A DNA stretch of 64,000 bases from Solirubrobacteraceae bacterium (GTDB taxonomy: Bacteria; Actinomycetota; Thermoleophilia; Solirubrobacterales; Solirubrobacteraceae), in NCBI GenBank assembly GCA_036555665.1, contig DATBKW010000373.1, forward strand, positions 1,898-65,897, read 5' to 3'. The notes beneath the pieces were generated by a model. That model did not search any database. It was not told where the DNA came from and worked only from the letters and a program-made list of their open reading frames with translations. Positions within the stretch are counted from its first letter, which is position 1; the number at the start of each line of letters is the position of its first letter. A program made the translations under genes and the position numbers. This document shows positions 4,885-54,258 of this stretch, in pieces.

Positions 4885-4888
<4 letters not shown>
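3044..4888 (+). CDS. Secreted glycoside hydrolase family 2-like enzyme
   Basis: 614 aa. N-terminal signal-like 'WAILAACLAVAMGVLAVAGA', sugar-binding-domain pattern 'SVAWYRTTI...VWIDG', TIM-barrel acid/base 'AWNLANEV' and nucleophile 'VSEFGAE'. Confidence 0.75.
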
Positions 4889-6216
<1,328 letters not shown>

Positions 6217-6217
6217 C

Positions 6218-7045
6218 CTAGCCGCAGAACGCTGCCAACTCGCGCGCGACTCCCACCGGGTCGTCGTAGGCCATGAGGAAGCCCGTGCCGGGCAGCACCC
6301 GCAGCTGCGCGTCGGGCAGCAGGTCGAGCGCCTCCTCGGCGGCCTGCAGCGGATGGCGGCGGTCTTCGTCGGCCCACAGCAGCAGCACCGGCAGGTCCAG
6401 CCGCGGGTAGAGGTCGAGCAGCTCGCGCCGCGGCCCGCGGGGCCAGCGCTTGGCCAGCCGCGCCCACGAGCGCGCGAGGTTGGCGTTGCCGCCGATGTCG
6501 GCCATCGCGTGGCGCACGAGGTCGCGGGCGGCGGGCTCGGCGCTCACCGACAGCTTCACGCCGCGTTTGGGGCGGAAGGCCGCACGGGCGACGTGCGTCA
6601 TCACGCGGTCCAGGCCGGGCACCGCGCCGAGCCGGGCCGCCGCGCGCCACGGCTCCCGCGGGGCAGGGCGGTGCAGGGGGTTGGGCATCAACACGAGGCT
6701 GCCGGGCTCGAGCAGCCCGAGCTCGAGCGCCCGCAGGAGGATCTCGGCGCCGAGCTCGTGGCCGCCGACCAGCGGTCGCGGGCCGGCGGTCTCGACGCAG
6801 AAGGCGGCGATCACCTCGGCCAGCCAATCGAGCGTGTAGGGGTGGCGCGGGCGGTCCTCGGAGTCGCCGTGCAGGGGCAGGTCGGGGAGGATCAGTCGGT
6901 AGCGGTGGTCGAGGTACTCAACCGCCGGCTCGAACTCGCGGTAGCTCAGCAGCGCCGAGTGCAGGAGGACGAGGCCCGGGCCGGTGCCCGCCTCGCGGTA
7001 GGCCACGCGCGCGCCGTCGGTGTGGTGGTAGAGGCGCAGCTTCAC
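6218..7045 (-). CDS. Alpha/beta-hydrolase fold protein, probably catalytically inactive
   Basis: GTG at 7045 inside track ORF 6218..7447 ('VKLRLYHHTDGARVAYREAGTGPGLVLLHS'). The nucleophile elbow reads 'GGHELGA' instead of G-x-S-x-G. The His position reads 'GTGFLMAYDDP'. Confidence 0.65.
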   Translation of the reverse strand: MKLRLYHHTDGARVAYREAGTGPGLVLLHSALLSYREFEPAVEYLDHRYRLILPDLPLHGDSEDRPRHPYTLDWLAEVIAAFCVETAGPRPLVGGHELGAEILLRALELGLLEPGSLVLMPNPLHRPAPREPWRAAARLGAVPGLDRVMTHVARAAFRPKRGVKLSVSAEPAARDLVRHAMADIGGNANLARSWARLAKRWPRGPRRELLDLYPRLDLPVLLLWADEDRRHPLQAAEEALDLLPDAQLRVLPGTGFLMAYDDPVGVARELAAFCG

Positions 7046-7491
7046 CCGCGCGCCTCCCCGGCGCGCACGCCGCGCGCCACCGCGGCGACGACGCGCGGGC
7101 CGCCGGCATCGAGGAAGGCCGCGGCGCGTTCGATGCGCCGCTGCAGCTCGGCGTGGATGCCGGCGGTCCGGGCCGCACCGCGGCGCGTGGCGCCCACCAG
7201 ATAGCCCAAACGCAGCGCGGCGGTAGCGTCGCCGCCCTTGGCTGCGTCGGAGAGGTGGTCGGCCGCCCGGGTGAGGACGAGCCCGGCGCTCTGCAGGTCG
7301 GCATCGCTGCGCGCGTTGGCCACGCACTCGGACAGGCGCGTGCCCGTCGGCAGCGTCACGGTGGCGGGCGCCCGCGCGAGCGCGCGCTCGATCGCGCCCG
7401 GAGAGCTCAGGCACGCGTCGTCGAGCGGCTCGCCGCCGCCGCCGCACGCCGCGAGCAGCACGGCGGCGGACAGCGCGAGGACCCGGACCAT
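7042..7491 (-). CDS. Putative lipoprotein of unknown function
   Basis: ATG at 7491. 'MVRVLALSAAVLLAACGGGG' is a signal peptide plus lipobox (LAAC). Its stop overlaps the downstream GTG by 4 nt (GTGA). Confidence 0.6.
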   Translation of the reverse strand: MVRVLALSAAVLLAACGGGGEPLDDACLSSPGAIERALARAPATVTLPTGTRLSECVANARSDADLQSAGLVLTRAADHLSDAAKGGDATAALRLGYLVGATRRGAARTAGIHAELQRRIERAAAFLDAGGPRVVAAVARGVRAGEARG

Positions 7492-7505
7492 GTCCGGATC
7501 GTAGA

Positions 7506-8795
7506 GTGGCCCGGGTGGTCCGCTCCTCCTACGACCGGGAGATCCTGGGTCTCGCGGTGCCGGCGCTCGGTGCGCTCGCCGCCGAGCCGCTGTACCTGCT
7601 CGTCGACACCGCGATCGTCGGTCATCTGGGGACACCGCAGCTCGCCGCGCTCGCGCTCGCATCGACGGTGCTGGCGAGCCTGATCGCGCTGTGCATCTTC
7701 CTCACCTACGGGACGACGGCGCGCGTGACGCGGCTGCACGGCGCGGGCCAGGACGCCGAAGCGGCCGCCCTCGGCCCGCAGGCGCTGTGGCTCGCGCTGA
7801 CCGTCGGCGTGATCGTCGCGGGAGCCGTGGCCGCGCTGGCCGACCCGCTCGTGCATGCGCTCGGCGGTCAGGGCGACGTCGCGGACATGGCCGTCAGCTA
7901 CCTGCGCATCGCTTCGCTCGGCGTCCCGATGGCGCTCATCGCGCTGGCGGGGCAGGGCTGGCTGCGCGGCATGGGCGACCTGCGCACGCCGCTGATCATC
8001 GTCGTGGTGGCCAACGCCGCCAACGTCGTGCTCGAGCTGTTGTTCGTCTACGGCTTCGACTGGGGGCTCGACGGCTCGGCCTGGGGGACGGTCCTCGCGC
8101 AGCTCGGGATGGGCGTGGCGTTCGCGGTCGTGCTCCTGCAGGTGTTCGCGGCGCCGGATCCCGGCCGCATCCGCTCGCTGGTCTCGATCGGCGCCCAGCT
8201 CGTGGTGCGGACCGCGGCGCTGCTCGGCTGCTTCGTGCTCGCCACCGCCGTCTGTGCGCGTATCGGCGCGGCGACGCTCGGCGCGCACCAGATCGCCTTT
8301 CAGCTCTACGGCTTCCTGGCCCTGCTGCTCGACGCGATCGCCATCGCCGGGCAGGTGATCGTCGGGCGCGCGCTCGGCGCCGGTGACGCCGACGACGCCG
8401 TGGCCGCGGCGCGGCGGATGATCGAACTGTCGCTCTTCGCCGGCCTGATCATCGGCGGCGTCTTCCTCGCGTTGACGAACGTAGTGCCGCGGGCGTTCAC
8501 CGACGATCCGCAGGTGATCGACCAGGCGCACGACCTATGGCCGCTGTTCTGTGTGATGTGGCCGGTGGCCGCGGTCGCCTTCGCGCTCGACGGGATCCTC
8601 ATCGGCGCCGGTGACACGGCGTACATGGCGGGTGCGATGGTCGTCTCGTTCGTCGTCTTCGCGCCGATCGTGCTCGCCGCCAATACCGTTGCCGTCGTCT
8701 GGGTGGCCATCGACGTGCTCATGCTCGTGCGCGTGGCGACGCTCGGCGCGCGCTTCGCGCGGCGGCGGTGGGTGCTGGTCGGCGCGCACGCGTAG
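7506..8795 (+). CDS. MATE-family efflux transporter (DinF-like)
   Basis: 429 aa, about 12 predicted TM helices. N-terminal 'REILGLAVPALGALAAEPLYLLVDTAIVGHLG' is typical of MATE. Confidence 0.8.
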   Translation: MARVVRSSYDREILGLAVPALGALAAEPLYLLVDTAIVGHLGTPQLAALALASTVLASLIALCIFLTYGTTARVTRLHGAGQDAEAAALGPQALWLALTVGVIVAGAVAALADPLVHALGGQGDVADMAVSYLRIASLGVPMALIALAGQGWLRGMGDLRTPLIIVVVANAANVVLELLFVYGFDWGLDGSAWGTVLAQLGMGVAFAVVLLQVFAAPDPGRIRSLVSIGAQLVVRTAALLGCFVLATAVCARIGAATLGAHQIAFQLYGFLALLLDAIAIAGQVIVGRALGAGDADDAVAAARRMIELSLFAGLIIGGVFLALTNVVPRAFTDDPQVIDQAHDLWPLFCVMWPVAAVAFALDGILIGAGDTAYMAGAMVVSFVVFAPIVLAANTVAVVWVAIDVLMLVRVATLGARFARRRWVLVGAHA

Positions 8796-8876
8796 ATCGG
8801 CAGTATCGGCCCGCCAAACCTGCGCAAAGCCGCAGCGCCGGTCGCGCGGGCGCCGCCGGATGCCGTACTTGGCGCC

Positions 8877-9080
8877 ATGAGCACCACCGCTCGTCCGGAT
8901 GCGCGGCTGGGGCTGACCGCGTCACAGGCCGCGCGCCACCTCGGGGTCTCGATCTCGACGCTGCGGCGCTGGTCGGACGCCGGCCACCTGCAGGCCTACC
9001 GGACGCCCGGCCGTCAGCGCCGCTTCAGCGTCGAGCAGCTCGACGCCTTCCTCGACTCACTGCGCCCGCGCGGCGGCTGA
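8877..9080 (+). CDS. Small MerR-superfamily/excisionase-type HTH protein (BldC-like size)
   Basis: 67 aa. 'LTASQAARHLGVSISTLRRWSDAGHLQAYRTPGRQRRF' is an HTH_17/MerR-like DNA-binding domain with no effector domain. Confidence 0.7.
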   Translation: MSTTARPDARLGLTASQAARHLGVSISTLRRWSDAGHLQAYRTPGRQRRFSVEQLDAFLDSLRPRGG

Positions 9081-9094
9081 CCAGCCGGCGCGGC

Positions 9095-10432
9095 TCACGA
9101 CGACGGCGCGATCGCCTCGTTCATGCGGCGCTCGATGTCGAGCTCGCGGTCGAAGTCGGCCTCGTCGGCGTGGCGGTACTCGGTGCCGCGTCCGGCGAGC
9201 AGATCGGCGAGCGCCTCGACGTACGTCGCGTCGAGCTGCGAGCCGGCGACGCGCCGAAGCTCGTTGAGGGCCTCGAACGAGTTCATCGGCGTCCGATACG
9301 TGTCCGGGGCGGTCAGGGTGTCGTAGACCTCGGCCACCGCGACGACGCGAGCGATCGCGGGGATCTCGTCGCCGTGCAGCCGCTGGGGGTAGCCGCGGCC
9401 GTCGATGCGCTCGTGATGGGCGCGCACGATCTCGGCGACCGGGCCGTAGACGCCGATGTCGCGCAGCAGTTCCGCGCCGATGTCCGGGTGGCGCCGGATG
9501 CCGCGCCAGTCGGCCTCCGCCAGGCGCCCGCCGCGCTCCATGACGCGGTCCGAGAGCGCGAACTTGCCGATGTCGTGCAGGAGGCCGGCGGTATGGGCGA
9601 GCTCCTGGTCGCGCTTGGACATGCCGCAGTGCTTGGCGATGTCGCGCGAGAACGCTGCGACCGCCGCGCAATGGCGCGCCGCGCGCGAGTCGCGCTCGTC
9701 GAGGGTGCGGATGAGTCCCGAGAGGACGCCCCAGGAGAGGTTCGCGTACTGCCGCGTGCGCTCGCGCGCGACGATGACGAGGCGCGCCATGTAGGAGAAC
9801 GCGATCACGTTGAGCAGCACGAAGACGAGCGCCAGCAGTCCCAGCTGGTCGTAGATGCCGGCGATGACCGCGACCAGTCCGACGTTGAGCAGGACGGCTG
9901 GGAACGTCGCCAGCGCGCCGCGGATCGTCCCCAGGACCGACTTGCCGTCGAGGAGGGCGAACGCCGTCGACGCGAACAGCAGGTTCACCGCCATCGTTCC
10001 CGTCGCCACGAGCGCGAGCACGGCGATGAACTCGAAGCTGTCGCTGGGTGGATCGATCGCCTCGAAGAGGAACGCCGCCAGCATCACCGGCGTCGCCGAG
10101 CCCGCGATGTTGATCAGCAGCGCCTGCCAGCGGTAGCGGTCGACGATCCACACGCCGACGTAGGAGATCGTGGGCACCCAGAAGGCGGCGACGGGGCCCA
10201 GGAAGGCCACAGCGAGCATTGCCGCAAGGAAGGCCGCCGACAGCGTCAGGGTGGGCGCGTGCCGGGCCGCGATAAGCTCAGCGACCAGGGCGCATACCGC
10301 CAGGACGACTGCTAAAGGCTTGACTAGCGGCGACCAGGACGACATCGTCAGCCCTACGACCCCGACGCAAACGACGACGACCGCAAGCGTCATCGCGAGC
10401 ACGGGACGCCCCCGAGGCTGGGCCTCCGTCAT
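9095..10432 (-). CDS. Multi-pass membrane HD-GYP domain protein (probable c-di-GMP phosphodiesterase)
   Basis: 445 aa. About 7 N-terminal TM helices, then 'LLHDIGKF', 'HPDIGAELL', 'HHERIDGRGYP' (HD-GYP signature). The true start may be an internal GTG ('VLAMTL'). Confidence 0.8.
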   Translation of the reverse strand: MTEAQPRGRPVLAMTLAVVVVCVGVVGLTMSSWSPLVKPLAVVLAVCALVAELIAARHAPTLTLSAAFLAAMLAVAFLGPVAAFWVPTISYVGVWIVDRYRWQALLINIAGSATPVMLAAFLFEAIDPPSDSFEFIAVLALVATGTMAVNLLFASTAFALLDGKSVLGTIRGALATFPAVLLNVGLVAVIAGIYDQLGLLALVFVLLNVIAFSYMARLVIVARERTRQYANLSWGVLSGLIRTLDERDSRAARHCAAVAAFSRDIAKHCGMSKRDQELAHTAGLLHDIGKFALSDRVMERGGRLAEADWRGIRRHPDIGAELLRDIGVYGPVAEIVRAHHERIDGRGYPQRLHGDEIPAIARVVAVAEVYDTLTAPDTYRTPMNSFEALNELRRVAGSQLDATYVEALADLLAGRGTEYRHADEADFDRELDIERRMNEAIAPSS

Positions 10433-10661
10433 GCGCAGAAATTACAACGTCTGCGAGAGGTCCAGACGTGGTTGGAAAGAGAGCTGCCTAGCGGCCGCCG
10501 TAAAACATCACAAGTGCTCCCCTCGTTTGGGGGTTTGCCGGATCGGACGTGGCGGAACATACACACGTCCAGATGGCATTGCACGGATTTCTCCGCGAAA
10601 CCCGTGCAAGATCTGTGTGCGCGGAGACAGATCTCTGTAAGACTGGTGCAGTGCGAGGGCT
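10433..10661. promoter_or_regulatory. Low-GC, hairpin-dense divergent intergenic region (promoters plus possible structured RNA)
   Basis: Stem-loops read directly. 10447-10453/10463-10469 (7 bp). 10545-10551/10564-10570 (7 bp). 10579-10586/10602-10609 (8 bp, plus inner TTTC/GAAA). 10610-10616/10627-10633 (7 bp). CCCC/GGGG at 10519-10532. Confidence 0.35.
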
Positions 10662-11561
10662 GTGCGCACGCTGAAGACCTCCGAGGCTGCCGCGGTGCTC
10701 AACGTGAGCCCGAATACGCTCCGCGCGTGGGAGCGCCGTTTCGGCTACCCCAAGCCGCAGCGGACCGCCGGCAAGCATCGGCTCTACACACACGGCGAGG
10801 TCGCCGCTCTGCGCGACGCCCTGCAGGAAGGGCTTTCGATCTCGTCCGCAATCTCGCGTGCGCGCGAGTCGCTGAGTTCGGACACGAGCACGCTGGTCGG
10901 CGCCTTGCAGGCCTTCGAGCTCGACCGCGCGGATGCCGCGATGGAGGCGGCGCTCGCGCTGCGCTCCGTCGAGCGCAGCGTCGAGGAGGTCCTGCTGCCG
11001 TCGATCCGCGAGATCGGCGAGCGCCACGGCTTCGACTCGGCGCCCTGGGCCTTCGCCGCACGCTGGGCCACCGACTGGCTCCAGCGCGCCCAGCGGATGG
11101 CGCCGCCGCCGACGCGGCCGACCGCGATCCTGGTCGGCGACGCCACGCGCGACGACCTCGATCCCGACGCGCTGGCCCTCAAGGCGCTCCAGCTCTTCGC
11201 CGTCCGCTCCGGGGCGCGCGTGCTCGTCCTGCCGATCACCGGCGTGGCGGGCCTGAACGAGGTGCTCGGAGCGTTCGCGCCGCAGGTGGTCGTCATCGCC
11301 GGGGCTCACGCCTCCGATGACGACGTCGCACGCTGGGCCTACCGCGTCCGCTCCGCCAGCGGCGCACTGCCGATGGCGCTCTACCGCCGCGGCGGCCGCG
11401 CCGACGCCGCCCGCACGACCGCGCGCACCCTCCCGGATTCCTCCGGCGAGGCGCACCGCATCGTCCTTGACATTCTCGATGGCCGGCCGCGGGGGATGGC
11501 CGCTCCGGCTGACGACCACATCGACCAGCCGGACACCAGCCGCCAGGTGAAAGCTTCGTGA
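10662..11561 (+). CDS. MerR-family regulator with CarH/CarA-like C-terminal (B12-binding-like) module, paralogue A
   Basis: 299 aa, GTG start. HTH 'LNVSPNTLRAWERRFGYPKPQRTAGKHRLY'. Helical bundle 'LLPSIREIGERHG...'. Rossmann-like 'AILVGDATRDD...ARVLVLP...VVVIAGAH'. Confidence 0.75.
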   Translation: MRTLKTSEAAAVLNVSPNTLRAWERRFGYPKPQRTAGKHRLYTHGEVAALRDALQEGLSISSAISRARESLSSDTSTLVGALQAFELDRADAAMEAALALRSVERSVEEVLLPSIREIGERHGFDSAPWAFAARWATDWLQRAQRMAPPPTRPTAILVGDATRDDLDPDALALKALQLFAVRSGARVLVLPITGVAGLNEVLGAFAPQVVVIAGAHASDDDVARWAYRVRSASGALPMALYRRGGRADAARTTARTLPDSSGEAHRIVLDILDGRPRGMAAPADDHIDQPDTSRQVKAS

Positions 11562-12055
11562 TCGATCGCCCCCGCCTCGTCGCCCTACCGGGCCGAGACC
11601 ACCCACGCCCCGACGTCCACTTCTGCGGTCACTGCGGACGACCTCCTACGGCCACGGACATCCAGTCGGCGTCGCGCGTCTGCGCCCGCTGTGGCCTCGG
11701 CCTGATGGTTGCGGCAACGCCCGATGCGGCGCCGTCGCCCCACGACCCGTTCCTGCTGGTCGACGGCCAGCTCTCGGTCTGCGCGGTGAGCCGCCTGGCC
11801 GAGGAGCTGCTGCTCACCAGCGAGACGGAGGCCGTCAACTCCCATATCGGCGACCTGCTCGTGCCGGCCGACATCGAGCTCTCCGGCCCGGACTCGCTGG
11901 TCAACCTCATCGTGCACGCGGCCCGCGGCACGGGGGAGCCGAGCCACGTCGTGCTGCGCCCGGCGAAGGAGTTCGGGATCCGCTTCTGGGCGCGTATCGC
12001 GCCGTGCGGCCCGCCGCAGGCGGCGCTCATCGTGCTGGCCGACGGCCGGGCCTGA
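11558..12055 (+). CDS. Zinc-ribbon plus PAS-like domain protein
   Basis: 165 aa. GTG overlaps the upstream stop (GTGA). 'CGHCG...CARCG' forms a 4-Cys ribbon. 'FLLVDGQLSVCAVSRLAEELLLTSETEAVNSHIGDLL...FWARIAPCG...ALIVL' has a PAS-like pattern. Confidence 0.6.
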   Translation: MIDRPRLVALPGRDHPRPDVHFCGHCGRPPTATDIQSASRVCARCGLGLMVAATPDAAPSPHDPFLLVDGQLSVCAVSRLAEELLLTSETEAVNSHIGDLLVPADIELSGPDSLVNLIVHAARGTGEPSHVVLRPAKEFGIRFWARIAPCGPPQAALIVLADGRA

Positions 12056-12176
12056 CCAGCGGCGACATCGCCCGTCGCGGTCACCGGCCGCGGTCCTGCG
12101 TGTGCAAGGAAACGCCCAGGCTGCAGCAACGCTTGCCGACGTTGCGCAAACCTCACCAACGCTCGATACATCGCGC

Positions 12177-13040
12177 ATGGGCGCGATCCGCACCAACGCC
12201 GCTGCGGCCATGCTCGGCGTCAGCCCCAACACGCTGCGCTCCTGGGAGCGGCGCTTCGGGTTCCCCGAGCCGCAGCGCACCGCGGGCGGCCATCGCCAGT
12301 TCGACCTCTCGGAGATCGAGGCGCTGCGCAGCGCCTTCGAGGAGACGCACAACATCTCCTCGGCGGTCGCCCTCGCGCGCGAGCGCGGCGCCGGGCCCGC
12401 CACGCCGTCGCGCCTGCGCAGCGCGTTTGCGCGTTACGACGAGGTCGACGCCGATCGCGTCCTGGAGGAGAGCCTTGCCGTGCGCTCTGTCGAGCGGACG
12501 GTCGAGGAGGTGCTCCTGCGCGGCGTCGAGGCGCTCGATCCCACGGGCCCCGAGTACGGCTTCGCGTGGCGGTGGGCGACCGGATGGCTGGCGGCGGCGA
12601 TGCGGGTCGCCCCGTCGGCGACGCGCGCGGACGGCGTGCTCGTCTTCGATGCCAGCGCGCCGTGCGACCTCGATGCTCTGCACGCGCAGGCGTTGGAGCT
12701 ATGCCTGCGCCGCCGCGGGCTGCGCACGCTGACGCTGACCGTGGCGCTGGACCCCAGCCGCATGGGTCGCGCGTTGCACGCGCTCGCCCCGCGCGCGGTC
12801 GTGCTCACCGGCCGCCGCGCATCGCTCGACGGCCTCGGGCGCCTCGTGTATGCGGCGCGCAGGATCGGTGGCGACGGCGTCGCGATCTACGACTTCCGCG
12901 GTGCGCTGGGCGCGACGGGCGCGACCACCGTGCCGCGGCTTGGCGACGCCCCGCTGGCGGCGTGCGAGCAGCTCGTCGAGGACCTCGACGGCGGTGCGCG
13001 GGCTCAGCGGCCCGAGCTGATCGCGGTCGGTCGCTACTGA
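12177..13040 (+). CDS. MerR-family regulator with CarH/CarA-like C-terminal module, paralogue B
   Basis: ATG at 12177 within track ORF 12102..13040. HTH 'LGVSPNTLRSWERRFGFPEPQRTAGGHRQF' is nearly identical in pattern to paralogue A, with the same downstream architecture. Confidence 0.75.
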   Translation: MGAIRTNAAAAMLGVSPNTLRSWERRFGFPEPQRTAGGHRQFDLSEIEALRSAFEETHNISSAVALARERGAGPATPSRLRSAFARYDEVDADRVLEESLAVRSVERTVEEVLLRGVEALDPTGPEYGFAWRWATGWLAAAMRVAPSATRADGVLVFDASAPCDLDALHAQALELCLRRRGLRTLTLTVALDPSRMGRALHALAPRAVVLTGRRASLDGLGRLVYAARRIGGDGVAIYDFRGALGATGATTVPRLGDAPLAACEQLVEDLDGGARAQRPELIAVGRY

Positions 13041-13684
13041 GCGCTGATCACCCCGCTCCCGGTGACCGTCCGGGTGACGCGCGCGGGGTTGCCGCCATAG
13101 AGGATCGTGCCGCGGCCCGAGAGCGTCGCCGCGAGGCTGCGCGTCGCGGTGAGCGTGATGGTGCCGTCGCCACTGAGAACGGCTCTCGCGTCGCGCGCGA
13201 CGAGCTCGCGCAGCAGGACGTTCCCTGCGCCGCTGAGGGTGACGCCGAGCTTTGCCGTGGTTCCGGTCGCGGCGATGTTCCCGGCGCCTGCGAGCTTGAG
13301 GTTGTCCAGCACGGGCAGGCTCACGGCCACGAACATCGGGGTCTTGGCATTGAGGCTGCCGGGAGTGGTCCCGATCACCAGCCTGCCCGCGCGCACTCGC
13401 GTGGTGACGCGTCCGAGCAGGTTGCTGTCGGCGTGGACGATGACCGACTGCTTGCCGCCGACATGGACGATGACGTTGTTGGCGCCGGCCAGGTCGATGG
13501 CGCTGAAGGGTGGAAGCTCCCGCACCTGCGTCTTTGCGACGCCCGAGCCGGTGCCCGCCGGGGTGCTCGAGCTGTCGAAGAAGATCCTGTCGATGACGAG
13601 CGTCATCAACAGGAGGACGCCGACTGCCAACAGCGCCAGCTGCAGGCGCCCCTGGCGGCCGATTTCGGTGCGCCGCGTGCTCAT
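13034..13684 (-). CDS. DUF2807-like (putative adhesin head / GIN domain) membrane-anchored protein
   Basis: ATG at 13684 (alternative GTG at 13699). N-terminal TM 'LQLALLAVGVLLLMTLVI'. Repeated beta-helix-like 'LAGAGNI...LSGAGNV...LSGDGTI...LSGRGTI'. Confidence 0.65.
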   Translation of the reverse strand: MSTRRTEIGRQGRLQLALLAVGVLLLMTLVIDRIFFDSSSTPAGTGSGVAKTQVRELPPFSAIDLAGANNVIVHVGGKQSVIVHADSNLLGRVTTRVRAGRLVIGTTPGSLNAKTPMFVAVSLPVLDNLKLAGAGNIAATGTTAKLGVTLSGAGNVLLRELVARDARAVLSGDGTITLTATRSLAATLSGRGTILYGGNPARVTRTVTGSGVISAQ

Positions 13685-13782
13685 GACCTGATCTCCCACG
13701 CACCCTTGCAGCGCGTGAGTGCGAGCACATCCGCGAGCGCCCGCAATGAGCGCCGCGCGGAACTACTGACCGACGCCCGACG

Positions 13783-14169
13783 CTAGCGGCGCTTGACGCG
13801 CGGGCGGCGGTCCATCCGCCGCAGCTCGCGCTCGACGCGCTCGACGCTCTCGGCCACCTGGCTGACCAGGTGCTCGATGCCCTGGTTGCGGTCGAGCTCG
13901 GCGCGAGCGCTCGAGACGGCCTCGCGCAGCATGCGCACCTCGAGGCCGAAGCGGCCGCGCAGCGCGTTGATCTCGTCGTCGTGCGAGCGGCGCAGCCCGG
14001 CGACCTCGTTGGCGTGGCGCTCGCGTGCGACGCAGAGCTCGACCTGGGTCGAGCGCTCCAGGGCGCGCGCGGCCTCCGTGGCGGAGCGCGCGGAGCGCAT
14101 GCGACGGAGCGTCGGGATGAGGAAGACCAGGCCGCAGGCCAGGCCGACGAAGTAGGCGGCTACGTACAT
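13783..14169 (-). CDS. Small membrane-anchored coiled-coil protein, unknown function
   Basis: ATG at 14169 in track ORF 13783..14559. TM 'MYVAAYFVGLACGLVFLIPTL' followed by a charged helical region. Confidence 0.45.
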   Translation of the reverse strand: MYVAAYFVGLACGLVFLIPTLRRMRSARSATEAARALERSTQVELCVARERHANEVAGLRRSHDDEINALRGRFGLEVRMLREAVSSARAELDRNQGIEHLVSQVAESVERVERELRRMDRRPRVKRR

Positions 14170-14210
14170 TCGCCTCGGCAATCGACCACTGAGAGTCGAT
14201 CCTGAGGCGA
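14170..14210. promoter_or_regulatory. Nested inverted repeat, candidate MarR operator
   Basis: TCGCCTC-ggca-ATCGAC-cactgaga-GTCGAT-cct-GAGGCGA, between divergent genes 14169(-) and 14270(+). Confidence 0.35.
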
Positions 14211-14269
14211 TTTCTGCGGAAGTGGACGGTCGTCGGAGCCGTCCGCCCCTGGCGTAATGATCTCGCGCG

Positions 14270-14701
14270 ATGACGCTCGTGCCCGGTGATCCCCTGGCCC
14301 ACCGCGCGCTGGACTCGCTGTTACGCGCGGAGGCGAGCGTCCGTCGGCGCCTTTCGGCCGACCTCGAGCGCGAGGGCCTGAGCGCGTCTGGGTTCAGCGT
14401 CCTTGTAGTGCTCACGACGGCCGGCGGCCAGCTCGAGCTGCGCGCGCTGCGCCGTCGGCTGCAGACGTCGAAAGCCAATGCGACCGAGGTGGTAACGACG
14501 CTCGAGGTCCGCGGCCTCGTCGTCCGCAGCCGCCTGCCCCACGACCGCCGTGCCGCCACGGTTGCGTTGACGCCGCTCGGTCAGGAGGTCGTCGACCGGC
14601 TCTTCCCCGAGCACACCGATCGCGTGCAGCGCGCGTTTGCGGTGCTCGACGAGCGGGAGAAGCGGTCGCTCGCCGAAATCTGCCGCAAGCTCGCGGCCTA
14701 G
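14270..14701 (+). CDS. MarR-family transcriptional regulator
   Basis: 143 aa. Winged-HTH pattern 'LRALRRRLQTSKANATEVVTTLEVRGLVVRSRLPHDRRAATVALTPLG'. Confidence 0.8.
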   Translation: MTLVPGDPLAHRALDSLLRAEASVRRRLSADLEREGLSASGFSVLVVLTTAGGQLELRALRRRLQTSKANATEVVTTLEVRGLVVRSRLPHDRRAATVALTPLGQEVVDRLFPEHTDRVQRAFAVLDEREKRSLAEICRKLAA

Positions 14702-15942
14702 CCGGCGCGCCGCGTCACGAGCCGGATCCGCAGGCCCTGCGTCGCGTAGGCGATCAGCGCCTGCCCGCGCGTCGTCATCGCGAAGGCCGGCGGGGTGCTG
14801 ACCGCGGAGTCGGTGCCGGAGACGGTTCGCACCGTGCCCACGATCCCGCCCGGGGCGATGCGCACGACGCGCACGCGATGTCGCACGCCGTTGCCGCCGA
14901 CGACCCACGCCGCGTAGCCGGCGCCGCTGTCGACCGCGAGCGCGGCGTCGCGCGTGCGCTCGCCGGGCGGCGTGAGCGCGAGCACGGGCGTGACCGCGTG
15001 GCCGTCGGGCGCGAGCTGCAGCGCCTGCAGCGGCCCGGCCGGCGAGTCGGCGCGCGCGGACACGAAGGTCACGAGCACCTCGTCGTTGGTCGTGGCGATC
15101 GCCTGCGCGGTCAGCGCCCGGGCGGTCGACGGGGCAAGGACGATCGGGGCGCCGAACGGCGCGCCGGGCGCCGCGGATGCGGCCACCAGCGCGCGGCCGT
15201 TCGCATCCGCCTGGGTCCAGACGGCGACGATATGGCCGCCGGACGTGACGGCCAGCTTCGGCGTGCGCGCGAAGCCGCCCGGCGCCGACACGCGCGTCGC
15301 CGGGCCGAACGCGGTCGCCCCGGGCGCGACCGTTGCGGTGTAGATCGCGCCGCCGCTCGGCCAGACGGCGATCAGCGCCCCGTTGGCGAGGCGGACGACC
15401 TGCGCGTCGAAGGTGGCGCCGACGGGCAGCCGCATGGTGACGCCCGGGCGCCCTTGCGGAATCGACCGCACATACGCCGCCGTGCGCCGATTGAACTGCA
15501 CGAGATTCGGGGTCACGAAGGCCGGGTCGTAGCTGTTGGGCGGCCCCGTGATCGCGTTGGGCCCGGTCGTCGCCCCGGTGCGCGTCACCGAGGAGAGCTG
15601 GAGCACGCGAGCGTCGGGGTTGCGGAACTGCCGCCACATGACGAGCGCCGAATGGCCGCTGTAGGTGAGGGCCGTCGAGTCGAGTCCGCGCGTGTCGCGC
15701 GCGGTGATGACCGGCGTGCCCAGCGTGTCGACCGTGCCCTGGCGCAACTCGACGCGGTCGGCGCCGTCGATGTGGCGGACGTAGCCGACGCCGGCGGCGT
15801 CGGGTCCGCCGAGGGCGACGACGGGCTCGCGGGCCTGCCCGCTCACAGTCACCGATCGTGGCGCGCTCCAGGGTGCTGCGTGGGCGGCCGCCGGCGCCAG
15901 CGCGAGCGCGAGCACGGCCGTCAGGACGGTGCGCGTGGTCAT
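14698..15942 (-). CDS. Secreted repeat protein of unknown function
   Basis: ATG at 15942. Signal peptide 'MTTRTVLTAVLALALAPAAAHA/AP'. Recurring '...ALVMW / LIAVW / IVAVW / YAAWV' beta-strand motifs suggest a propeller-like fold. Shares a CTAG stop with MarR. Confidence 0.6.
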   Translation of the reverse strand: MTTRTVLTAVLALALAPAAAHAAPWSAPRSVTVSGQAREPVVALGGPDAAGVGYVRHIDGADRVELRQGTVDTLGTPVITARDTRGLDSTALTYSGHSALVMWRQFRNPDARVLQLSSVTRTGATTGPNAITGPPNSYDPAFVTPNLVQFNRRTAAYVRSIPQGRPGVTMRLPVGATFDAQVVRLANGALIAVWPSGGAIYTATVAPGATAFGPATRVSAPGGFARTPKLAVTSGGHIVAVWTQADANGRALVAASAAPGAPFGAPIVLAPSTARALTAQAIATTNDEVLVTFVSARADSPAGPLQALQLAPDGHAVTPVLALTPPGERTRDAALAVDSGAGYAAWVVGGNGVRHRVRVVRIAPGGIVGTVRTVSGTDSAVSTPPAFAMTTRGQALIAYATQGLRIRLVTRRAG

Positions 15943-16000
15943 CGCCCGTTGCAACGCTCCGGGATACCCCGGGGTTGCGCTCCTACAATTCCCCGTCCAG

Positions 16001-19000
16001 ATGGTGCGTCGTCCCGTCGACCCCCAGCAGTCGTTCCCTGCCCTCGAGGAGCAGGTCCTCGCGCGCTGGCGCGAACGCGACGTGTTCCACGAGTCGGTCC
16101 GCCGCCGCGCGGGCGCGCAGTCGTGGGTCTTCTGGGAGGGCCCGCCGACGGCGAACGGCAAGCCCGGCGCGCACCACGTGCTGTCGCGCGTCTTCAAGGA
16201 CATCTATCCGCGCTACAAGACCATGCGCGGCTACCAGGTCGAGCGCAAGGGCGGCTGGGACACCCACGGCCTGCCCGTCGAGATCGCCGTCCAGCAGCAG
16301 CTCGGGATCGAGAACAAGCGCGAGATCGAGGAGTTCGGGATCGCCGAGTTCAACCAGCGCTGCCGCGAAGCGGTCTTCGAGTACCTCGAGGACTGGAACG
16401 CGCTGACCGAGCGCATCGGCTTCTGGATCGACCTCGAGGACGCCTATCGCACGCTTGACGCAACGTACGTCGAGTCGGTGTGGTGGGCGCTGCGCCAGAT
16501 CCACGACAAGGGCCTGCTCTACGAGGGCCACAAGGTCGTGCCCTATTGCCCGGGATGCGAGACGGCGCTCTCCAGTCACGAGGTCGCGCTGGGCTATGAG
16601 GACGTCGTCGACCCGAGCGTCTACGTGCGCCTGCCGGTCGTCGAGGACGGCGGCCCGCTGCAGGCCGGCGACGAACTGCTCGTGTGGACCACGACGCCGT
16701 GGACGCTGGTCTCCAACGCGGCGGTCGCGGTCGACCCCGAGCTGACCTACGTGCGCGCCAAGGCCGGCCCGCTCGAGGCGCCCGTCGTCCTCGCCGAGTC
16801 GCTCGTCGAGCGCGTGCTCGGCCGCGATGGCGTCCAGGTCCTCGCTCGCTTCCCGGGGGCCGCGCTCGACGGCGTGCGCTACGAGCCGCCGTTCCCGTTC
16901 CTGAAGTCCGACGTCTACGGCGAGCGTGGGCACACCGTGCTGCTCGGGGATTTCGTCACCGCCGACGACGGCACCGACCTCATGCACACCGCGATCGCCT
17001 TTGGCGACGAGGACTTCCGCCTCGGCCAGCAATACGGGCTCAACGTCGTCAACCCGGTGCGCCTGGACGGGACCTACGACGAGCGCATCGGCCCGTACGC
17101 GGGACGCAAGGTCCAGGACGCCAACCCCGATCTCATCGAGGACCTGCGCGCGCGCGGGCGCCTGCTGCGCGCCGAGACGATCGAGCACGCCTACCCGCAT
17201 TGCTGGCGCTCGGGCGACCCGCTCATCTACTACGCCAAGCGCTCGTGGTACATCGCCACCTCTCAGCTGCGCGACGAGCTCATCGAGGCCAACAACCAGG
17301 TCGCCTGGCACCCCGAGCACATCCGCGACGGGCGCATGGGCGACTGGCTGCGCGGCAACGTCGACTGGGCGCTGTCGCGCGAGCGCTACTGGGGTACGCC
17401 GCTGCCCGTCTGGCGCTGCTCGCGCGACGCCGAGCACACCCACGTCATCGGGTCGTTCGATGAGCTGGAGGAGCTGTCCGGCGTGCGCCTCGAGGACCCA
17501 CACCGCCCGTTCGTCGACGAGGTCGGCTTCCCGTGCCCGCAGTGCGGGGCGCGGATGGAGCGCGTGCCCGAGGTCATCGACGTCTGGTTCGACTCGGGTT
17601 CGATGCCCTTCGCGCAATACCACGCGCCGTTCGAGAACGAGGAGCGCTTCCAGGCCCGCAGCTACGCGAACTTCGTCTGCGAGGCGATCGACCAGACGCG
17701 CGGGTGGTTCTACTCGCTGCTGGCCATCAGCGTCCTGCTCTTCGACCGTTCGCCCTACGAGACGGTCGTCTGCCTGGGCCTGATCCTGGACGCCGAGGGC
17801 CAGAAGATGTCGAAGTCCAAGGGCAACATCGTCGTGCCCTGGGACGTCATCGACCGCTTCGGGGCCGATGCCTTCCGATGGTACTTCTTCACGGCCAAGA
17901 ACCCGTGGGACGCGTACCGCTTCAACGTCGACACGATCGGCGACTCGATCCGGCTGTTCCTGCGCCAGCTGTGGAACACGTACGCCTTCCTGTCGACGTA
18001 CGAGCGGGAGCGGCCTGGCGAGGTGACCGACCTGGATCGCTGGATCCTGTCGCGTCTGGCCGCCACGGTCGAAGAGGTGACCGAGCGCATGGACGCGTTC
18101 GACGCCACGACCGCGGGGCGCGCCATCGCCGAGTTCGTCGACGACCTGTCCAACTGGTACGTGCGCGGATCGCGGCGGCGCTTCTGGGAGGGCGACGGCG
18201 CCGCGTTCACGACGCTCGAGACGGCGCTGGTGACGGTCGCCAAGCTGCTCGCGCCGTTCACGCCGTTCGTGGCCGACGAGCTCTACGACAACCTCGACGG
18301 GTCCGAGCCGTCGGTGCACCTGTGCGACTGGCCGGAGCCCGGCGAGCGCGACGTGGGCCTCGAGCACGCGATGACGGTCGCGCGCGAGACGGTGCGCCTC
18401 GGGCTGTCGGCCCGTGCCGCTGCGAAGGTCAAGCTGCGCCAGCCGCTGAAGGAGGCGGTCGTGGTCGCGGTCGGTCGCGAGCGCGACGGCATCGAGCGCT
18501 TGGCCGACATCGTGCGCGATCAGCTCAACGTCAAGGAGCTGCGCTTCGTGCAGGCGGCCGACGAGCTGGGCTCCTACGAGGTCAAGCCCAACTACCGCGC
18601 GCTCGGGCCGCGCTTCGGCAAGGCGATGCCGCAGGTCGCGGCGGCGGTCGCGGCGCTCGACCCGACGCATGTTGGCGAGGCGCTGCGCGAGGGTCAGCCG
18701 ATCGGCATCTCTGTCGACGGCCATGACCACGAGCTCGGTCCCGACGACCTGCTGCTGGCGATGGCGCCGCTCGAGGGCTACCAGCTCGAGCGCGAGGGCT
18801 CGCATGCGGTGGCGCTGGAGCTCGCCCTGGACGACGAGCTGCGCCGCGAAGGCCTGGCGCGCGAGGTCGTGCATGCGGTGCAGAACGCGCGCAAGGCGGC
18901 CGGCCTGGCCGTGGAGGACCGCATCCGGCTCGTGCTCGGTGGCGACGACGAGCTCGTCGGCGCAGCGCAGGCGCACGAGGAGTACCTCGCTCGCGAGGTG

Positions 19001-19093
19001 CTCGCGGTCGAGGTCGTCTACGACGGCGCACACGACGGAGTGCTGGCGACGATCGAGGACCGCGAGCTCCGCATCGCGGTCGCACGGGCCTAG
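16001..19093 (+). CDS. ileS: Isoleucine--tRNA ligase
   Basis: ATG at 16001 in track ORF 15929..19093. Class I motifs 'PTANGKPGAHHV' (HIGH) and 'KMSKSKGN' (KMSKS), CP1 editing domain 'WTTTPWT', length about 1030 aa. Confidence 0.95.
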   Translation: MVRRPVDPQQSFPALEEQVLARWRERDVFHESVRRRAGAQSWVFWEGPPTANGKPGAHHVLSRVFKDIYPRYKTMRGYQVERKGGWDTHGLPVEIAVQQQLGIENKREIEEFGIAEFNQRCREAVFEYLEDWNALTERIGFWIDLEDAYRTLDATYVESVWWALRQIHDKGLLYEGHKVVPYCPGCETALSSHEVALGYEDVVDPSVYVRLPVVEDGGPLQAGDELLVWTTTPWTLVSNAAVAVDPELTYVRAKAGPLEAPVVLAESLVERVLGRDGVQVLARFPGAALDGVRYEPPFPFLKSDVYGERGHTVLLGDFVTADDGTDLMHTAIAFGDEDFRLGQQYGLNVVNPVRLDGTYDERIGPYAGRKVQDANPDLIEDLRARGRLLRAETIEHAYPHCWRSGDPLIYYAKRSWYIATSQLRDELIEANNQVAWHPEHIRDGRMGDWLRGNVDWALSRERYWGTPLPVWRCSRDAEHTHVIGSFDELEELSGVRLEDPHRPFVDEVGFPCPQCGARMERVPEVIDVWFDSGSMPFAQYHAPFENEERFQARSYANFVCEAIDQTRGWFYSLLAISVLLFDRSPYETVVCLGLILDAEGQKMSKSKGNIVVPWDVIDRFGADAFRWYFFTAKNPWDAYRFNVDTIGDSIRLFLRQLWNTYAFLSTYERERPGEVTDLDRWILSRLAATVEEVTERMDAFDATTAGRAIAEFVDDLSNWYVRGSRRRFWEGDGAAFTTLETALVTVAKLLAPFTPFVADELYDNLDGSEPSVHLCDWPEPGERDVGLEHAMTVARETVRLGLSARAAAKVKLRQPLKEAVVVAVGRERDGIERLADIVRDQLNVKELRFVQAADELGSYEVKPNYRALGPRFGKAMPQVAAAVAALDPTHVGEALREGQPIGISVDGHDHELGPDDLLLAMAPLEGYQLEREGSHAVALELALDDELRREGLAREVVHAVQNARKAAGLAVEDRIRLVLGGDDELVGAAQAHEEYLAREVLAVEVVYDGAHDGVLATIEDRELRIAVARA

Positions 19094-26915: not shown

Positions 26916-27680
26916 CTACGCGTGCAGCCGGCGCCGCAGGGCGGCGACGTTGCGGCGCGCCACCGGGATCTCGGTGTCGTCGCGCATGATGAGCACGGCG
27001 GTGCCGTTGAGCTGCGCGCGCAGCTCGACCGCGTGCTTGAGATTGACGAGATAGGCGCGGTGTACGCGGGCGAAGCCGCTGGCGCCCCAATCCTTCTCGA
27101 GCTGGCTGAGCGGCGTGCGCAGCAGGAAGCGCCCGTCCTCGCAGACGATGCGCGCGTAGTCGCCGTTGGCCTGGGCGAAGGAGATCGTCTCCAGGCGCAC
27201 GAGCCGCTTGCCGCCGCCCTTGGGGTTGTCCACGGCGACGACGTCGGGGCCCGCCGCGGCGCCCTCGGAGCCGTCGGCCGAGGGGCCGCCCTTGGCGGCC
27301 TCGGTGCCGCGGACGTGCTGCTCGACGCGCGTGAGCGCCGACTCCAGCCGTTCGCGCGTCACGGGCTTGACCAGGAAGTCCAGGGCCTGGACCTCGAAGG
27401 CCTCGACGGCCGCGTCGGGGTGGCCGGTGAGGAAGACCACCGCCGGCGGGTCGGCGAACCGCCGCAGCAGACGGGCGAGGGCCATGCCCTCGATCTCGGG
27501 CATCGCGACGTCGAGGAAGAGCGCGTCGTAGCGCCCGCCCGACAGGAAGACCAGCGCCTCCTTGGCCGAGGTCGCGGTGGCGACGCGCTCGACCGAGGCC
27601 GAGGTCTCCAGCAGCCGCTTGATGTCGGTGAGCGCCCGCGGCTCGTCGTCCACGGCCAGGATCGCCAGGCCAGAGCTCAT
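26916..27680 (-). CDS. Response regulator, REC + LytTR DNA-binding domain
   Basis: 254 aa. 'ILAVDDEP', phospho-acceptor context 'DALFLDVAMPEIEG', 'FLVKP', LytTR 'ISFAQANGDYARIV...VHRAYLVNL'. Confidence 0.85.
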   Translation of the reverse strand: MSSGLAILAVDDEPRALTDIKRLLETSASVERVATATSAKEALVFLSGGRYDALFLDVAMPEIEGMALARLLRRFADPPAVVFLTGHPDAAVEAFEVQALDFLVKPVTRERLESALTRVEQHVRGTEAAKGGPSADGSEGAAAGPDVVAVDNPKGGGKRLVRLETISFAQANGDYARIVCEDGRFLLRTPLSQLEKDWGASGFARVHRAYLVNLKHAVELRAQLNGTAVLIMRDDTEIPVARRNVAALRRRLHA

Positions 27681-49214: not shown

Positions 49215-49562
49215 CTACGCCCGCGGCACCATGACCTCGAGGACGGTGCCGTCGAGGTCGGGGAAGTAGATCGAGTCGCTTTCGCGATGGCGTTCGGGCT
49301 GGTAGGCGATCCCGAGGCGATCGAGCCGCGCGGCGACGCGCCGCTGGCCGGCGTGGTCGGTGGCCAGCGCGACATGGCGCAGGCCGGGTGCGCGCTCGGC
49401 GAAGAGGCCCAGGCGCGCGCCGACGGGGCCGAGGAAGACCGGCTCCTCCGGCACGGCGTGGCGCGCGTGGGCGCGCAGGCCGAGGACCTCCTCGTACCAG
49501 GCGATCGAGGCCTGGCGGTCGTGGACGTCGAGGGACACGTGGTCGATGCGGATCAGTTGCAT
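49215..49562 (-). CDS. VOC/glyoxalase-family protein
   Basis: ATG at 49562 ('MQLIRIDHVSLDVHD'; the track starts at GTG 49580). 'SIYFPDLDGTVLEV' at the C-terminus. Confidence 0.7.
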   Translation of the reverse strand: MQLIRIDHVSLDVHDRQASIAWYEEVLGLRAHARHAVPEEPVFLGPVGARLGLFAERAPGLRHVALATDHAGQRRVAARLDRLGIAYQPERHRESDSIYFPDLDGTVLEVMVPRA

Positions 49563-49599
49563 GGCCGGAGCGTCGGGCACGGCGCCCGTCCGCGCGATG

Positions 49600-49619
49600 G
49601 ATTTGATTCACATCAAATC
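49600..49619. promoter_or_regulatory. Perfect AT-rich 20-nt palindrome, candidate operator
   Basis: GATTTGAT-tcac-ATCAAATC in the divergent intergenic region between 49562(-) and 49657(+). Confidence 0.45.
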
Positions 49620-49656
49620 GTTCGTCAGGGTCGCGGGGCGCCGGGACGCTGGCGCC

Positions 49657-53802: not shown

Positions 53803-54258
53803 ATGAGCGAACCGTCGCAAATGCTCACGATTGGCGAAGTCGCCCGCCGATCCGGCGTCAAGGCGTCGACGCTGCGCTACTACGAGTCGCTCGGCGTCCT
53901 GCCCGAGCCCGAGCGGGTGGCCGGGCAGCGCCGCTACACCGCCGAAGTGCTGCGCCGTCTGGCCGTCGTCGACGTCGTCCAGCGCGCGGGCTTCTCGCTC
54001 GAGGAGATCCGCGACCTCGTCAGCGCCGCCGACGAACCGGCCTCACGGCGGGTGCGCGCGCTGGCCGACCACAAGCTCCCGCAGATCGAGGCGCTCATCG
54101 ACCGCGCGCAGGCGGTGCACCGCTGGCTGCAGGCCGCAAGCGCGTGCGAGTGCGAGACCTTCGACGCGTGCAGCCTGTTCGACGACCGCGCGCTGCGCGA
54201 CGACGAGCGCCTGCCGGTCGGGCGCAGCGCGCTGCTCAGAACAGGTGGCTCTGGCTGA
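53803..54258 (+). CDS. MerR-family transcriptional regulator with C-terminal Cys cluster
   Basis: ATG at 53803. 'LTIGEVARRSGVKASTLRYYESLGVLPEPERVAGQRRY'. C-terminal 'ASACECETFDACSLF'. Confidence 0.8.
   Translation: MSEPSQMLTIGEVARRSGVKASTLRYYESLGVLPEPERVAGQRRYTAEVLRRLAVVDVVQRAGFSLEEIRDLVSAADEPASRRVRALADHKLPQIEALIDRAQAVHRWLQAASACECETFDACSLFDDRALRDDERLPVGRSALLRTGGSG

Follow-up and report, generated by a model that had tools for sequence, protein, structure and literature searches.

The stretch analysed here, 64,000 nt of a Solirubrobacteraceae genome (contig DATBKW010000373.1; the whole stretch is called the window below), carries two neighbouring paralogous genes, merR1 and merR2, whose products have the CarH/LitR architecture without the residues that ligate adenosylcobalamin (AdoCbl). 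Between them lies znPAS, which encodes a small protein with a zinc ribbon and a PAS domain, and a membrane HD-GYP protein is encoded divergently upstream. Together these genes form a real, conserved, lineage-specific system. We tentatively favour, as a possible reading of the unit, a self-controlled module in which the cobalamin-free CarH-type regulators MerR1 and MerR2 would bind TGCAC palindromes and ZnPAS would modulate them by contact.

MerR1 and MerR2 belong to the broad LitR/CarH family

MerR1 and MerR2 share 42% identity over 284 aa (E 4e-53). Both match the MerR_1/MerR helix-turn-helix (HTH) models of Pfam (E 1e-9 to 1e-10), and their recognition helices, LRAWERRFGYP and LRSWERRFGFP, are invariant within the MerR1 and MerR2 families, respectively. 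The helices follow the pattern RxWERR(F/Y), the DNA-contact motif of CarH and CarA (PMC9304148). In phmmer searches of Protein Data Bank (PDB) sequences, the top match of both paralogues was CarH/LitR of T. thermophilus (5c8d, 3whp; E 2e-15 and 4e-10), and MerR1 also matched the DNA-binding domain of CarA (2jml, E 5e-10). Fold modelling covered MerR1, and MerR2 was placed through sequence alignment, in which it follows CarH residues 17–258. The AlphaFold2 (AF2) model of MerR1 (predicted local distance difference test, pLDDT, 85.8) comprises a winged HTH, helices at residues 60–145 and a beta-alpha module at 155–241. Its best Foldseek match was full-length TtCarH (E 5e-14); for CarH cobalamin-binding domains in isolation, the target template modelling (TM) score was ~0.7. 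The initial annotation of this DNA had assigned the CarH/LitR architecture to both reading frames, and the PDB matches, the profiles and the predicted MerR1 fold, which is that of the CarH cobalamin-binding region, all agree with it.

The HTH and the helix bundle followed by a Rossmann-like module place both proteins in the LitR/CarH family in the broad sense. Against the narrower models they scored far below the cut-offs: 77 and 61 bits for the CarH equivalog of NCBIfam (cut-off 400), and 37 and 34 bits, through the HTH only, for the MlrA model NF011617 (cut-off 417), which places them outside the MlrA/BluR group. Their homologues are labelled 'light-induced transcriptional regulator' in the source database (JGI/KEGG). 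Each gene of the unit has hundreds of homologues, and the genes and motifs of the initial annotation are no chance pattern.

The AdoCbl ligand residues are lost in both families

CarH is defined by two signatures, the Wx9EH motif and the lower-axial histidine of the D/ExHxxG motif (PMC9304148). Residue correspondences were obtained by counting along the HMMER alignments with 5c8d and 3whp (3whp numbering is native + 5) and from a family alignment of 21 MerR1-type and 20 MerR2-type homologues together with both window proteins. Wx9EH is absent: CarH W131 is aligned to a gap in both paralogues, E141-H142 pairs with W-A in MerR1, and in MerR2 CarH E140-E141 stands opposite W-R and H142 opposite a gap. 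The second signature is likewise gone. CarH E175-R-H177-E-I-G180 corresponds to D-L-D-A-L-H in MerR2, and D167-x-D169 of MerR1 occupies the E175/H177 site in the family alignment. Position H177 of CarH thus holds D in each paralogue, and position G180 holds H or A. Neither paralogue matched PF02310 (B12-binding) at E ≤ 0.1, and the B12-binding_2 match of MerR1 was sub-threshold (20.8 bits, cut-off 23).

The loss of Wx9EH and of the D/ExHxxG histidine holds throughout both paralogue families. The missing motifs had first been noticed by eye, from the strings REIGERHGFDSAPWAFAARW with VGDATRDDLD and VEALDPTGPEYGFAWRW with VFDASAPCDLD; all four strings are present, and the HMMER alignments, profiles and family alignment bear the observation out. 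The accompanying label 'CarA-like' has to be dropped: CarA lacks the Trp but has retained both the EH of Wx9EH and the classic B12-binding motif (PMC9304148), and here motif and EH are both absent. With Wx9EH gone and ExHxxG turned into D-x-D, the two proteins are therefore neither CarH nor CarA proper; they have the CarH/LitR architecture without AdoCbl ligands. The acidic loop and the aromatic residues of the bundle are well kept: D160, D167, D169, F131, W135 and W139 are each at least 90% conserved across both paralogue families.

ZnPAS is a zinc-ribbon–PAS protein and the stand-alone form of a portable module

ZnPAS had been described as a four-cysteine zinc ribbon plus a PAS-like domain, translationally coupled to the gene before it, and both parts of this description stand. 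The GTG start of znPAS overlaps the TGA stop of merR1 in the sequence GTGA. All of 50 diverse relatives, with identities down to 32%, keep the cysteines C23, C26, C42 and C45. The AF2 model (pLDDT 91.8) shows a small ribbon followed by canonical PAS topology (A–I beta/alpha order, residues ~62–162), and Foldseek matched it to the PAS domains of EcDOS/DosP, FixL, PpsR, NtrB and LOV proteins (E 1e-4 to 1e-3). When the PDB was searched with the family profile, FixL PAS domains were matched (E 6.5e-4). Of the 50 diverse relatives, 21 matched PF00989 PAS (best E 4.9e-7), and some matched zinc-ribbon models. The window protein itself had no significant Pfam match and matched no PAS model, PAS_9 included; the fold model, the Foldseek matches and the family profile identify its PAS domain.

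Two familiar cofactor types were considered for this domain and rejected. A haem PAS of the FixL/EcDOS type has a conserved proximal His on F-alpha; of 34 operon orthologues, 15 carry H and 13 carry W at this position (H120), and paralogues have E, Q or D there. For a LOV domain, no NCRFL-type flavin-cysteine motif is present. Two other residues set the operon-linked orthologues apart, namely C75 (33 of 34; window 11780–11782), which is Q in paralogues, and H96 (30 of 34; window 11843–11845), which is P in paralogues. Judged from the PAS topology, C75 and H96 could line the ligand pocket. They are a pair specific to MerR-linked ZnPAS, which may serve for ligand, metal or haem-thiolate coordination.

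An exhaustive HMMER search, run over 1.84 billion cluster representatives, placed 388 clusters (50% identity) in the ZnPAS family at E ≤ 1e-3 and 237 at E ≤ 1e-10. In the 150 best representatives of the family, two kinds of proteins also carry the complete module (four Cys and CGPP) at their C-terminus: proteins of GGDEF or GAF-GGDEF type whose GGDEF and RxxD sites are intact (P0279, P0318, P0328, P0297, P0319), and Bac_transf sugar-phosphate transferases (P0276, P0285, P0315, P0270, P0309). Two fusions were traced to real contigs, one an Illumina metagenome contig and the other a 969-kb contig of a metagenome-assembled genome (MAG), on which relA/spoT neighbours the fusion gene. ZnPAS is a portable signalling module tied to the synthesis of cyclic di-GMP (c-di-GMP), and the module is probably also tied to exopolysaccharide priming. 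Since the c-di-GMP link of the unit had earlier rested on the HD-GYP neighbour only, the fusions to GGDEF cyclases give it independent support. As to the surroundings of such fusions, the GAF-GGDEF fusion of locus L085 (1562–3121) adjoins two MpsC genes, and a fusion to a CoA_binding_3/Bac_transf sugar transferase in locus L086 (6001–8007) adjoins relA/spoT and recJ. We found no literature description of the zinc-ribbon–PAS module or of the gene unit, and ZnPAS homologues are named 'hypothetical protein' in databases. Of all elements in this analysis, the module family with its fusions is the most original.

The divergent HD-GYP gene

The protein encoded divergently from merR1 matches the Pfam models HD_5 (E 7e-33) and HD (E 2e-18) and has 7–8 hydrophobic segments in hydropathy analysis, with the HD-GYP domain at its C-terminus. 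Its motifs are intact (HD286, HHE339, and GYP347 in HHERIDGRGYP), and a c-di-GMP phosphodiesterase is predicted from the sequence, in line with the multi-transmembrane HD-GYP gene that had been annotated here. A gene for it is found at the equivalent position in ~30 related loci. In locus L016, which lacks merR2, a gene resembling the transmembrane part of the HD-GYP protein (7075–7746, minus strand; 35% identity, query residues 19–245) follows znPAS.

The small HTH protein encoded convergently to the HD-GYP gene had been called BldC-sized and MerR-like. It is indeed a 67-aa protein of MerR/excisionase type (HTH_17 E 1.7e-13, MerR E 3.4e-10, TIGR01764 excise model 49 bits), but it reaches only 37.3 bits against the BldC model NF033787 (cut-off 77), which places it outside the BldC family. 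In tblastn searches its gene co-occurs with the unit, at the matching position, in most related loci.

Conserved palindromes upstream of merR1 and merR2

The 229-bp spacer between the HD-GYP gene and merR1 carries the palindrome TGCACGGATTT-N7-AAACCCGTGCA, whose 13-nt arms are 92% complementary. In a spacer alignment of 32 loci, the pattern TGCAC...TT(T)...AA...GTGCA is conserved and, in ~27 of the 32, ends at a fixed 53–55 nt before the merR1 start; its surroundings cannot be aligned between distant loci. In the window the full pattern occurs once, with 0.03 occurrences expected. As a control for the spacing, exact TGCAC-Nx-GTGCA matches with x from 9 to 25 were counted across 926 kb of fetched loci. 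N19 gave 23 matches; 22 came from operon loci, and 21 of these 22 fall on the merR1 site. N13 gave five, and every other spacer gave 0–2. The half-site is TGCACA in most loci. It fits TnnACA, the core of the direct repeats bound by CarH and CarA (PMC9304148), but the arrangement is inverted rather than tandem. A further inverted repeat, AGATCTGTGTGCG/CGGAGACAGATCT at 10609–10634, abuts the main palindrome; it was rejected as a core element, being conserved only in the closest relatives.

A looser palindrome, TGCA(A/C)-N13-(C/G)TGCA, lies 74–80 nt 5' of the merR2 start in 21 of 28 loci. Its support comes from cross-locus conservation and the spacer scan, because in the window the pattern is not enriched over shuffles (30 matches, 33.6 expected). 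Closer to merR2, the blocks TTGC...TTGC(G) and TCGATA(A/C)(C/A)T are present in at least 80% of the 28 loci at a fixed distance to the start. The window reads TTGC-N5-TTGCGC, a 17-nt spacer, GATACA (GATAAC elsewhere), 6 nt and ATG, a geometry which suggests that merR2 may have its own promoter and a leaderless mRNA. A generic sigma-70 scan of 8700–13800 called no site, and the proposed promoter therefore draws on the cross-locus conservation.

Distribution of the unit in Solirubrobacterales

To place the unit in related genomes, we scanned one genome per GTDB species with a close ZnPAS alignment, a set biased towards relatives carrying WAR[IV][GA]PCGP and [ED][LF]LVPAD[AI]E. The scan returned 80 loci, all from Solirubrobacterales-type MAGs except two that look mis-binned. 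With four loci found earlier through MerR1 homologues, the window proteins were mapped onto 84 loci, which fall into two classes.

Class 1 comprises 35 loci (31 from the scan, four from the MerR1 look-ups) that contain the orthologous unit in the order small HTH (+), HD-GYP (-), merR1-znPAS (+) and merR2 (+), usually followed by MarR and IleRS genes. Identities in this class fall to 62% for MerR1 and 46–50% for ZnPAS. The arrangement of the three-gene unit with the HD-GYP gene, whose conservation had been put forward as a check on the initial annotation, thus recurs in ~30 of 80 Solirubrobacterales loci. The junction of merR1 and znPAS is a 4-nt overlap (ATGA, GTGA or TTGA) in 19 of the 35 and a gap of 10–107 nt in 13 more, and the last three loci are assemblies with frameshifts. 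This junction is a stronger functional signal than the gene order.

Class 2 comprises 49 loci (L019, L030, L036–L084; for example 6001–6498 of L041) with a ZnPAS paralogue of 43–49% identity. It sits in an equally conserved housekeeping context, recognised by sequence inspection, being preceded by genes for an M29-type aminopeptidase and an FAD oxidase and followed by the SerRS gene. These flanks were considered as a clue to the function of ZnPAS and gave no functional lead. The 64 kb of the window hold no class 2-type ZnPAS paralogue; genes of similar type, FAD_binding_4 (49360–51018) and AMP-binding (60924–62426), are present.

A model for the module and its alternatives

The module that we tentatively favour would be specific to Solirubrobacterales and built on a LitR/CarH scaffold in which cobalamin is no longer used. 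In it we infer the contact between ZnPAS and the regulators, their DNA binding at the palindromes, the direction of regulation and the signal; the folds, the lost ligand residues, the linkage and coupling of the genes, the conserved palindromes and the recurrence of the ZnPAS module on cyclases and sugar-phosphate transferases are established by the data above. The helix bundle and Rossmann fold of MerR1 and MerR2 would probably serve oligomerisation and partner contact. Through TGCAC-containing palindromes in the HD-GYP/merR1 control region (N19) and 5' of merR2 (N13), the two regulators would govern how much is made of themselves and of the membrane HD-GYP c-di-GMP phosphodiesterase. ZnPAS, encoded on the merR1 mRNA and often translationally coupled, would be the signal-receiving partner: on sensing its cue it may bind MerR1, MerR2 or both and alter their DNA binding, in a manner modelled on short LOV proteins with class II LitR and on BluF with BluR.

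Several observations weigh against this model. The flanks of class 1 loci (fumarase, MATE, MarR, IleRS) are conserved like the unit itself; the gene order is therefore real but says little about function, and much of the synteny may be simple vertical inheritance. Within 6 kb of the class 2 ZnPAS paralogues there is no MerR or HD-GYP gene, and the occurrence of the paralogue in an unrelated context means that the module is not dedicated to these regulators. Since merR2 is missing from three class 1 loci (L015, L016, L018) and seems to have a promoter of its own, what looks like a 'pair' may consist of two looser circuits. A ligand site of the regulators' own could lie in the conserved acidic D-x-D loop. 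Finally, the arms of the merR1 palindrome co-vary at position 6 (A:T 14, G:C 6) and position 7 (G:C 9, A:T 6, G:T 3), and such compensatory change is also expected from an RNA or DNA hairpin.

The point about the D-x-D loop leads to a somewhat unlikely alternative, in which the regulators sense a small ligand or metal of their own in the remodelled B12 pocket (the D160/D167/D169 loop and F131/W135/W139) and ZnPAS is a co-expressed output or a passenger. The high conservation of the acidic loop and the aromatic bundle residues argues for a domain function beyond scaffolding, and a passenger role would fit the ZnPAS paralogues that occur without MerR genes. It would not account well for the tight, often overlapping merR1-znPAS junction, kept down to 46–50% ZnPAS identity, or for the group-specific C75 and H96, which suggest that the operon-linked ZnPAS is specialised for the MerR context. 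PAS partners of B12-less LitR, moreover, have a precedent (PMC9758184).

We regard as unlikely a local c-di-GMP circuit of the MlrA/PdeR type, in which the HD-GYP protein, or ZnPAS as a c-di-GMP receptor, or both would contact the regulators directly, and the messenger level, not an outside cue perceived by the PAS domain, would set transcription. The HD-GYP gene does share its control region with merR1 in ~30 loci and has intact catalytic motifs, and the ZnPAS module stands in a receptor-like position at the C-terminus of GGDEF cyclases and exopolysaccharide-type priming transferases. The MerR-like regulators MlrA and BluR are controlled through direct contact with EAL proteins (PMC3509220). 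However, no known c-di-GMP-binding motif is visible in ZnPAS or the regulators, the similarity to MlrA is confined to the HTH, and PAS domains on GGDEF proteins are usually sensors, not receptors.

A wider and quite unlikely reading takes the Cys4-zinc-ribbon–PAS protein as a new portable receptor module of second-messenger signalling in Solirubrobacterales. Its stand-alone form would act on transcription via the cobalamin-free CarH-type regulators, and its C-terminal fusions would pass that same signal on to diguanylate cyclases and to the transferase that primes exopolysaccharide synthesis with a sugar phosphate. Such a receptor might bind c-di-GMP or, by means of the operon-specific Cys75 and His96, sense redox state or gas.

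That the merR1 palindrome is an RNA (or cruciform) hairpin in the 5' leader, and not a protein operator, seems improbable. The compensatory changes at arm positions 6 and 7 are found while the HTH is almost invariant, as a hairpin would allow; but no covariation is seen in the outer 5 bp (TGCAC/GTGCA) or in TTT/AAA, which are all invariant, the second site 5' of merR2 has equal half-sites at a different spacing, and a constant distance to the start codon is in keeping with a promoter element. A permissive Rfam scan of 8000–14500 gave only a chance-level CRISPR-DR match (E 0.59), inside the DUF2807 gene. It is highly improbable that MerR1 and MerR2 are still cobalamin-dependent light sensors with non-canonical B12 binding, as their overall CarH fold and the 'light-induced' source annotation might suggest, given that Wx9EH and the lower-axial His are absent from both paralogue families (PMC9304148), PF02310 was not matched and the window genes that were scanned include neither carotenoid nor photolyase genes.

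Genomic setting

All reading frames of the initial annotation are present at their coordinates. The window has a G+C content of 70–76%, its proteins are most similar to those of MAGs labelled Solirubrobacteraceae or Solirubrobacterales, and gene calls around merR1 and merR2 were chosen by third-position G+C and homology (Table 1).

Table 1. Features of the merR1-znPAS-merR2 region, with positions in the window.
Feature	Position	Strand	Basis or remark
Fumarase	4885-6216	-	third-position G+C and homology
Alpha/beta hydrolase	6218-7447	-	assigned via Pfam matches of homologues in relatives
MATE transporter	7506-8795	+	third-position G+C and homology
67-aa excisionase/MerR-type HTH	8877-9080	+	convergent to HD-GYP gene; HTH_17 and MerR models
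445-aa membrane HD-GYP protein	9095-10432	-	divergent from merR1; HD_5 and HD models
Palindrome TGCAC-N19-GTGCA	10580-10608	.	candidate operator common to the divergent HD-GYP/merR1 promoters
MerR1, 299-aa LitR/CarH-family regulator	10662-11561	+	MerR HTH, four-helix bundle, Rossmann-like module
ZnPAS, 165-aa Cys4 zinc ribbon and PAS	11558-12055	+	start overlaps merR1 stop (GTGA)
Looser palindrome TGCA(A/C)-N13-(C/G)TGCA	12103-12125	.	candidate second operator, 5' of merR2
Promoter-like TTGCGC-17 nt-GATACA-6 nt-ATG	12142-12176	+	candidate merR2 promoter; cross-locus conservation
MerR2, 287-aa MerR1 paralogue	12177-13040	+	architecture as MerR1; B12 ligands likewise lost
DUF2807 protein	13034-13699	-	third-position G+C and homology
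MarR regulator	14270-14701	+	third-position G+C and homology
IleRS	from ~15929	+	third-position G+C and homology

The DUF2807 gene, which encodes an adhesin head GIN domain, is convergent to merR2 and overlaps its 3' end by 7 nt; the gene is absent at that position in loci L001 and L003 and is therefore outside the unit. The only terminator-like hairpin of the region (13585–13614) sits inside it. Further downstream, a 501-aa open reading frame (ORF; 14698–16203, minus strand) with high third-position G+C overlaps the start of the listed IleRS ORF (15929–19093, plus strand), and a Pfam scan of it gave no match. The IleRS matches in most relatives begin at query residues 12–30, and the true IleRS start is therefore probably later.

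Elsewhere in the window, an 886-aa multi-PAS hybrid histidine kinase (28326–30986, plus strand) is encoded near a LytTR response regulator (26916–27680, minus strand). A further, classical MerR-family regulator (~53806–54258, plus strand; MerR_1 E 1.2e-15) has a Cys-rich C-terminal stretch (CECETFDAC) and may sense metal or redox state. A 303-aa secreted-looking protein with a collagen-like (GAP)n repeat is encoded on the minus strand (52114–53025).

Significance and comparison with known systems

CarH/LitR proteins are the model of B12-based light sensing and are used as optogenetic tools. To our knowledge, reuse of the scaffold after cobalamin loss is known only for CarA and for the class II LitR of Pseudomonas. 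If the proposed reading is true, the unit would be a third solution, in which the complete cobalamin-binding fold is kept and an acidic D-x-D loop replaces the His, with the further traits of two paralogues whose related operators differ in spacing and of a zinc-ribbon–PAS partner. Thermoleophilia are abundant in soil but have hardly been studied, and for c-di-GMP regulation in this lineage the unit would also offer a first point of entry. Relative to the initial annotation, the palindromes at merR1 and merR2 and the ZnPAS fusions are new, and the 388-cluster module family attached to cyclases and sugar transferases is defined here.

Among known systems, CarH of T. thermophilus, M. xanthus and B. 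megaterium is the best match in sequence and fold and has the same domain order and RxWERR(Y/F) helix. Unlike CarH, MerR1 and MerR2 lack Wx9EH and the ExHxxG histidine, and the operators also differ: CarH binds tandem 11-bp direct repeats, and the candidates here are inverted repeats with 19- and 13-bp spacers.

CarA and CarS of Myxococcus xanthus resemble the unit in their adjacent paralogous CarH-type genes, B12-independent action and small-protein antagonist, which is a proposal in our case. MerR1 and MerR2 differ from CarA in the B12 motif and EH, and the window genes scanned include no carotenoid genes. The initial annotation had likened the zinc-ribbon–PAS protein to CarS. No search for CarS was made, and it is not the better precedent: CarS is an SH3-like DNA mimic reported only in Cystobacterineae, whereas ZnPAS is a PAS protein. 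By analogy, better precedents are class II LitR with its short LOV protein (PMC9758184) and BluR/BluF or MlrA/PdeR (PMC3509220).

The E. coli systems BluR/BluF and MlrA/PdeR/DgcM (PMC3509220, PMC3715855) also consist of paralogous MerR-like regulators, which there are controlled by sensor or c-di-GMP-enzyme proteins that contact them directly, and they share with the present unit a link to biofilm and exopolysaccharide control. They differ in using EAL/GGDEF enzymes instead of HD-GYP and in having no PAS-only partner, and the resemblance of MlrA to MerR1 and MerR2 is limited to the HTH.

Class II LitR is unable to bind B12, and a short LOV (PAS) protein encoded beside it renders it inactive (PMC9758184). 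In Pseudomonas (PmlR2/PmSB-LOV and PplR1-3; PMC9758184), as here, a B12-less LitR/CarH-family regulator occurs as several paralogues per genome, and its gene neighbours that of a small PAS-fold protein that stands alone and that in Pseudomonas controls DNA binding by direct contact. MerR1 and MerR2 are not class II LitR proteins, and the analogy is functional only. Class II LitR keeps the four-helix bundle alone, followed by an unrelated C-terminus, whereas MerR1 keeps the whole Rossmann-like module; the Pseudomonas partner is a LOV flavoprotein, whereas ZnPAS has no LOV signature, carries an N-terminal Cys4 ribbon and shows nothing pointing to light. B12-independent reuse of CarH-type regulators with a PAS partner already has a precedent in these systems.

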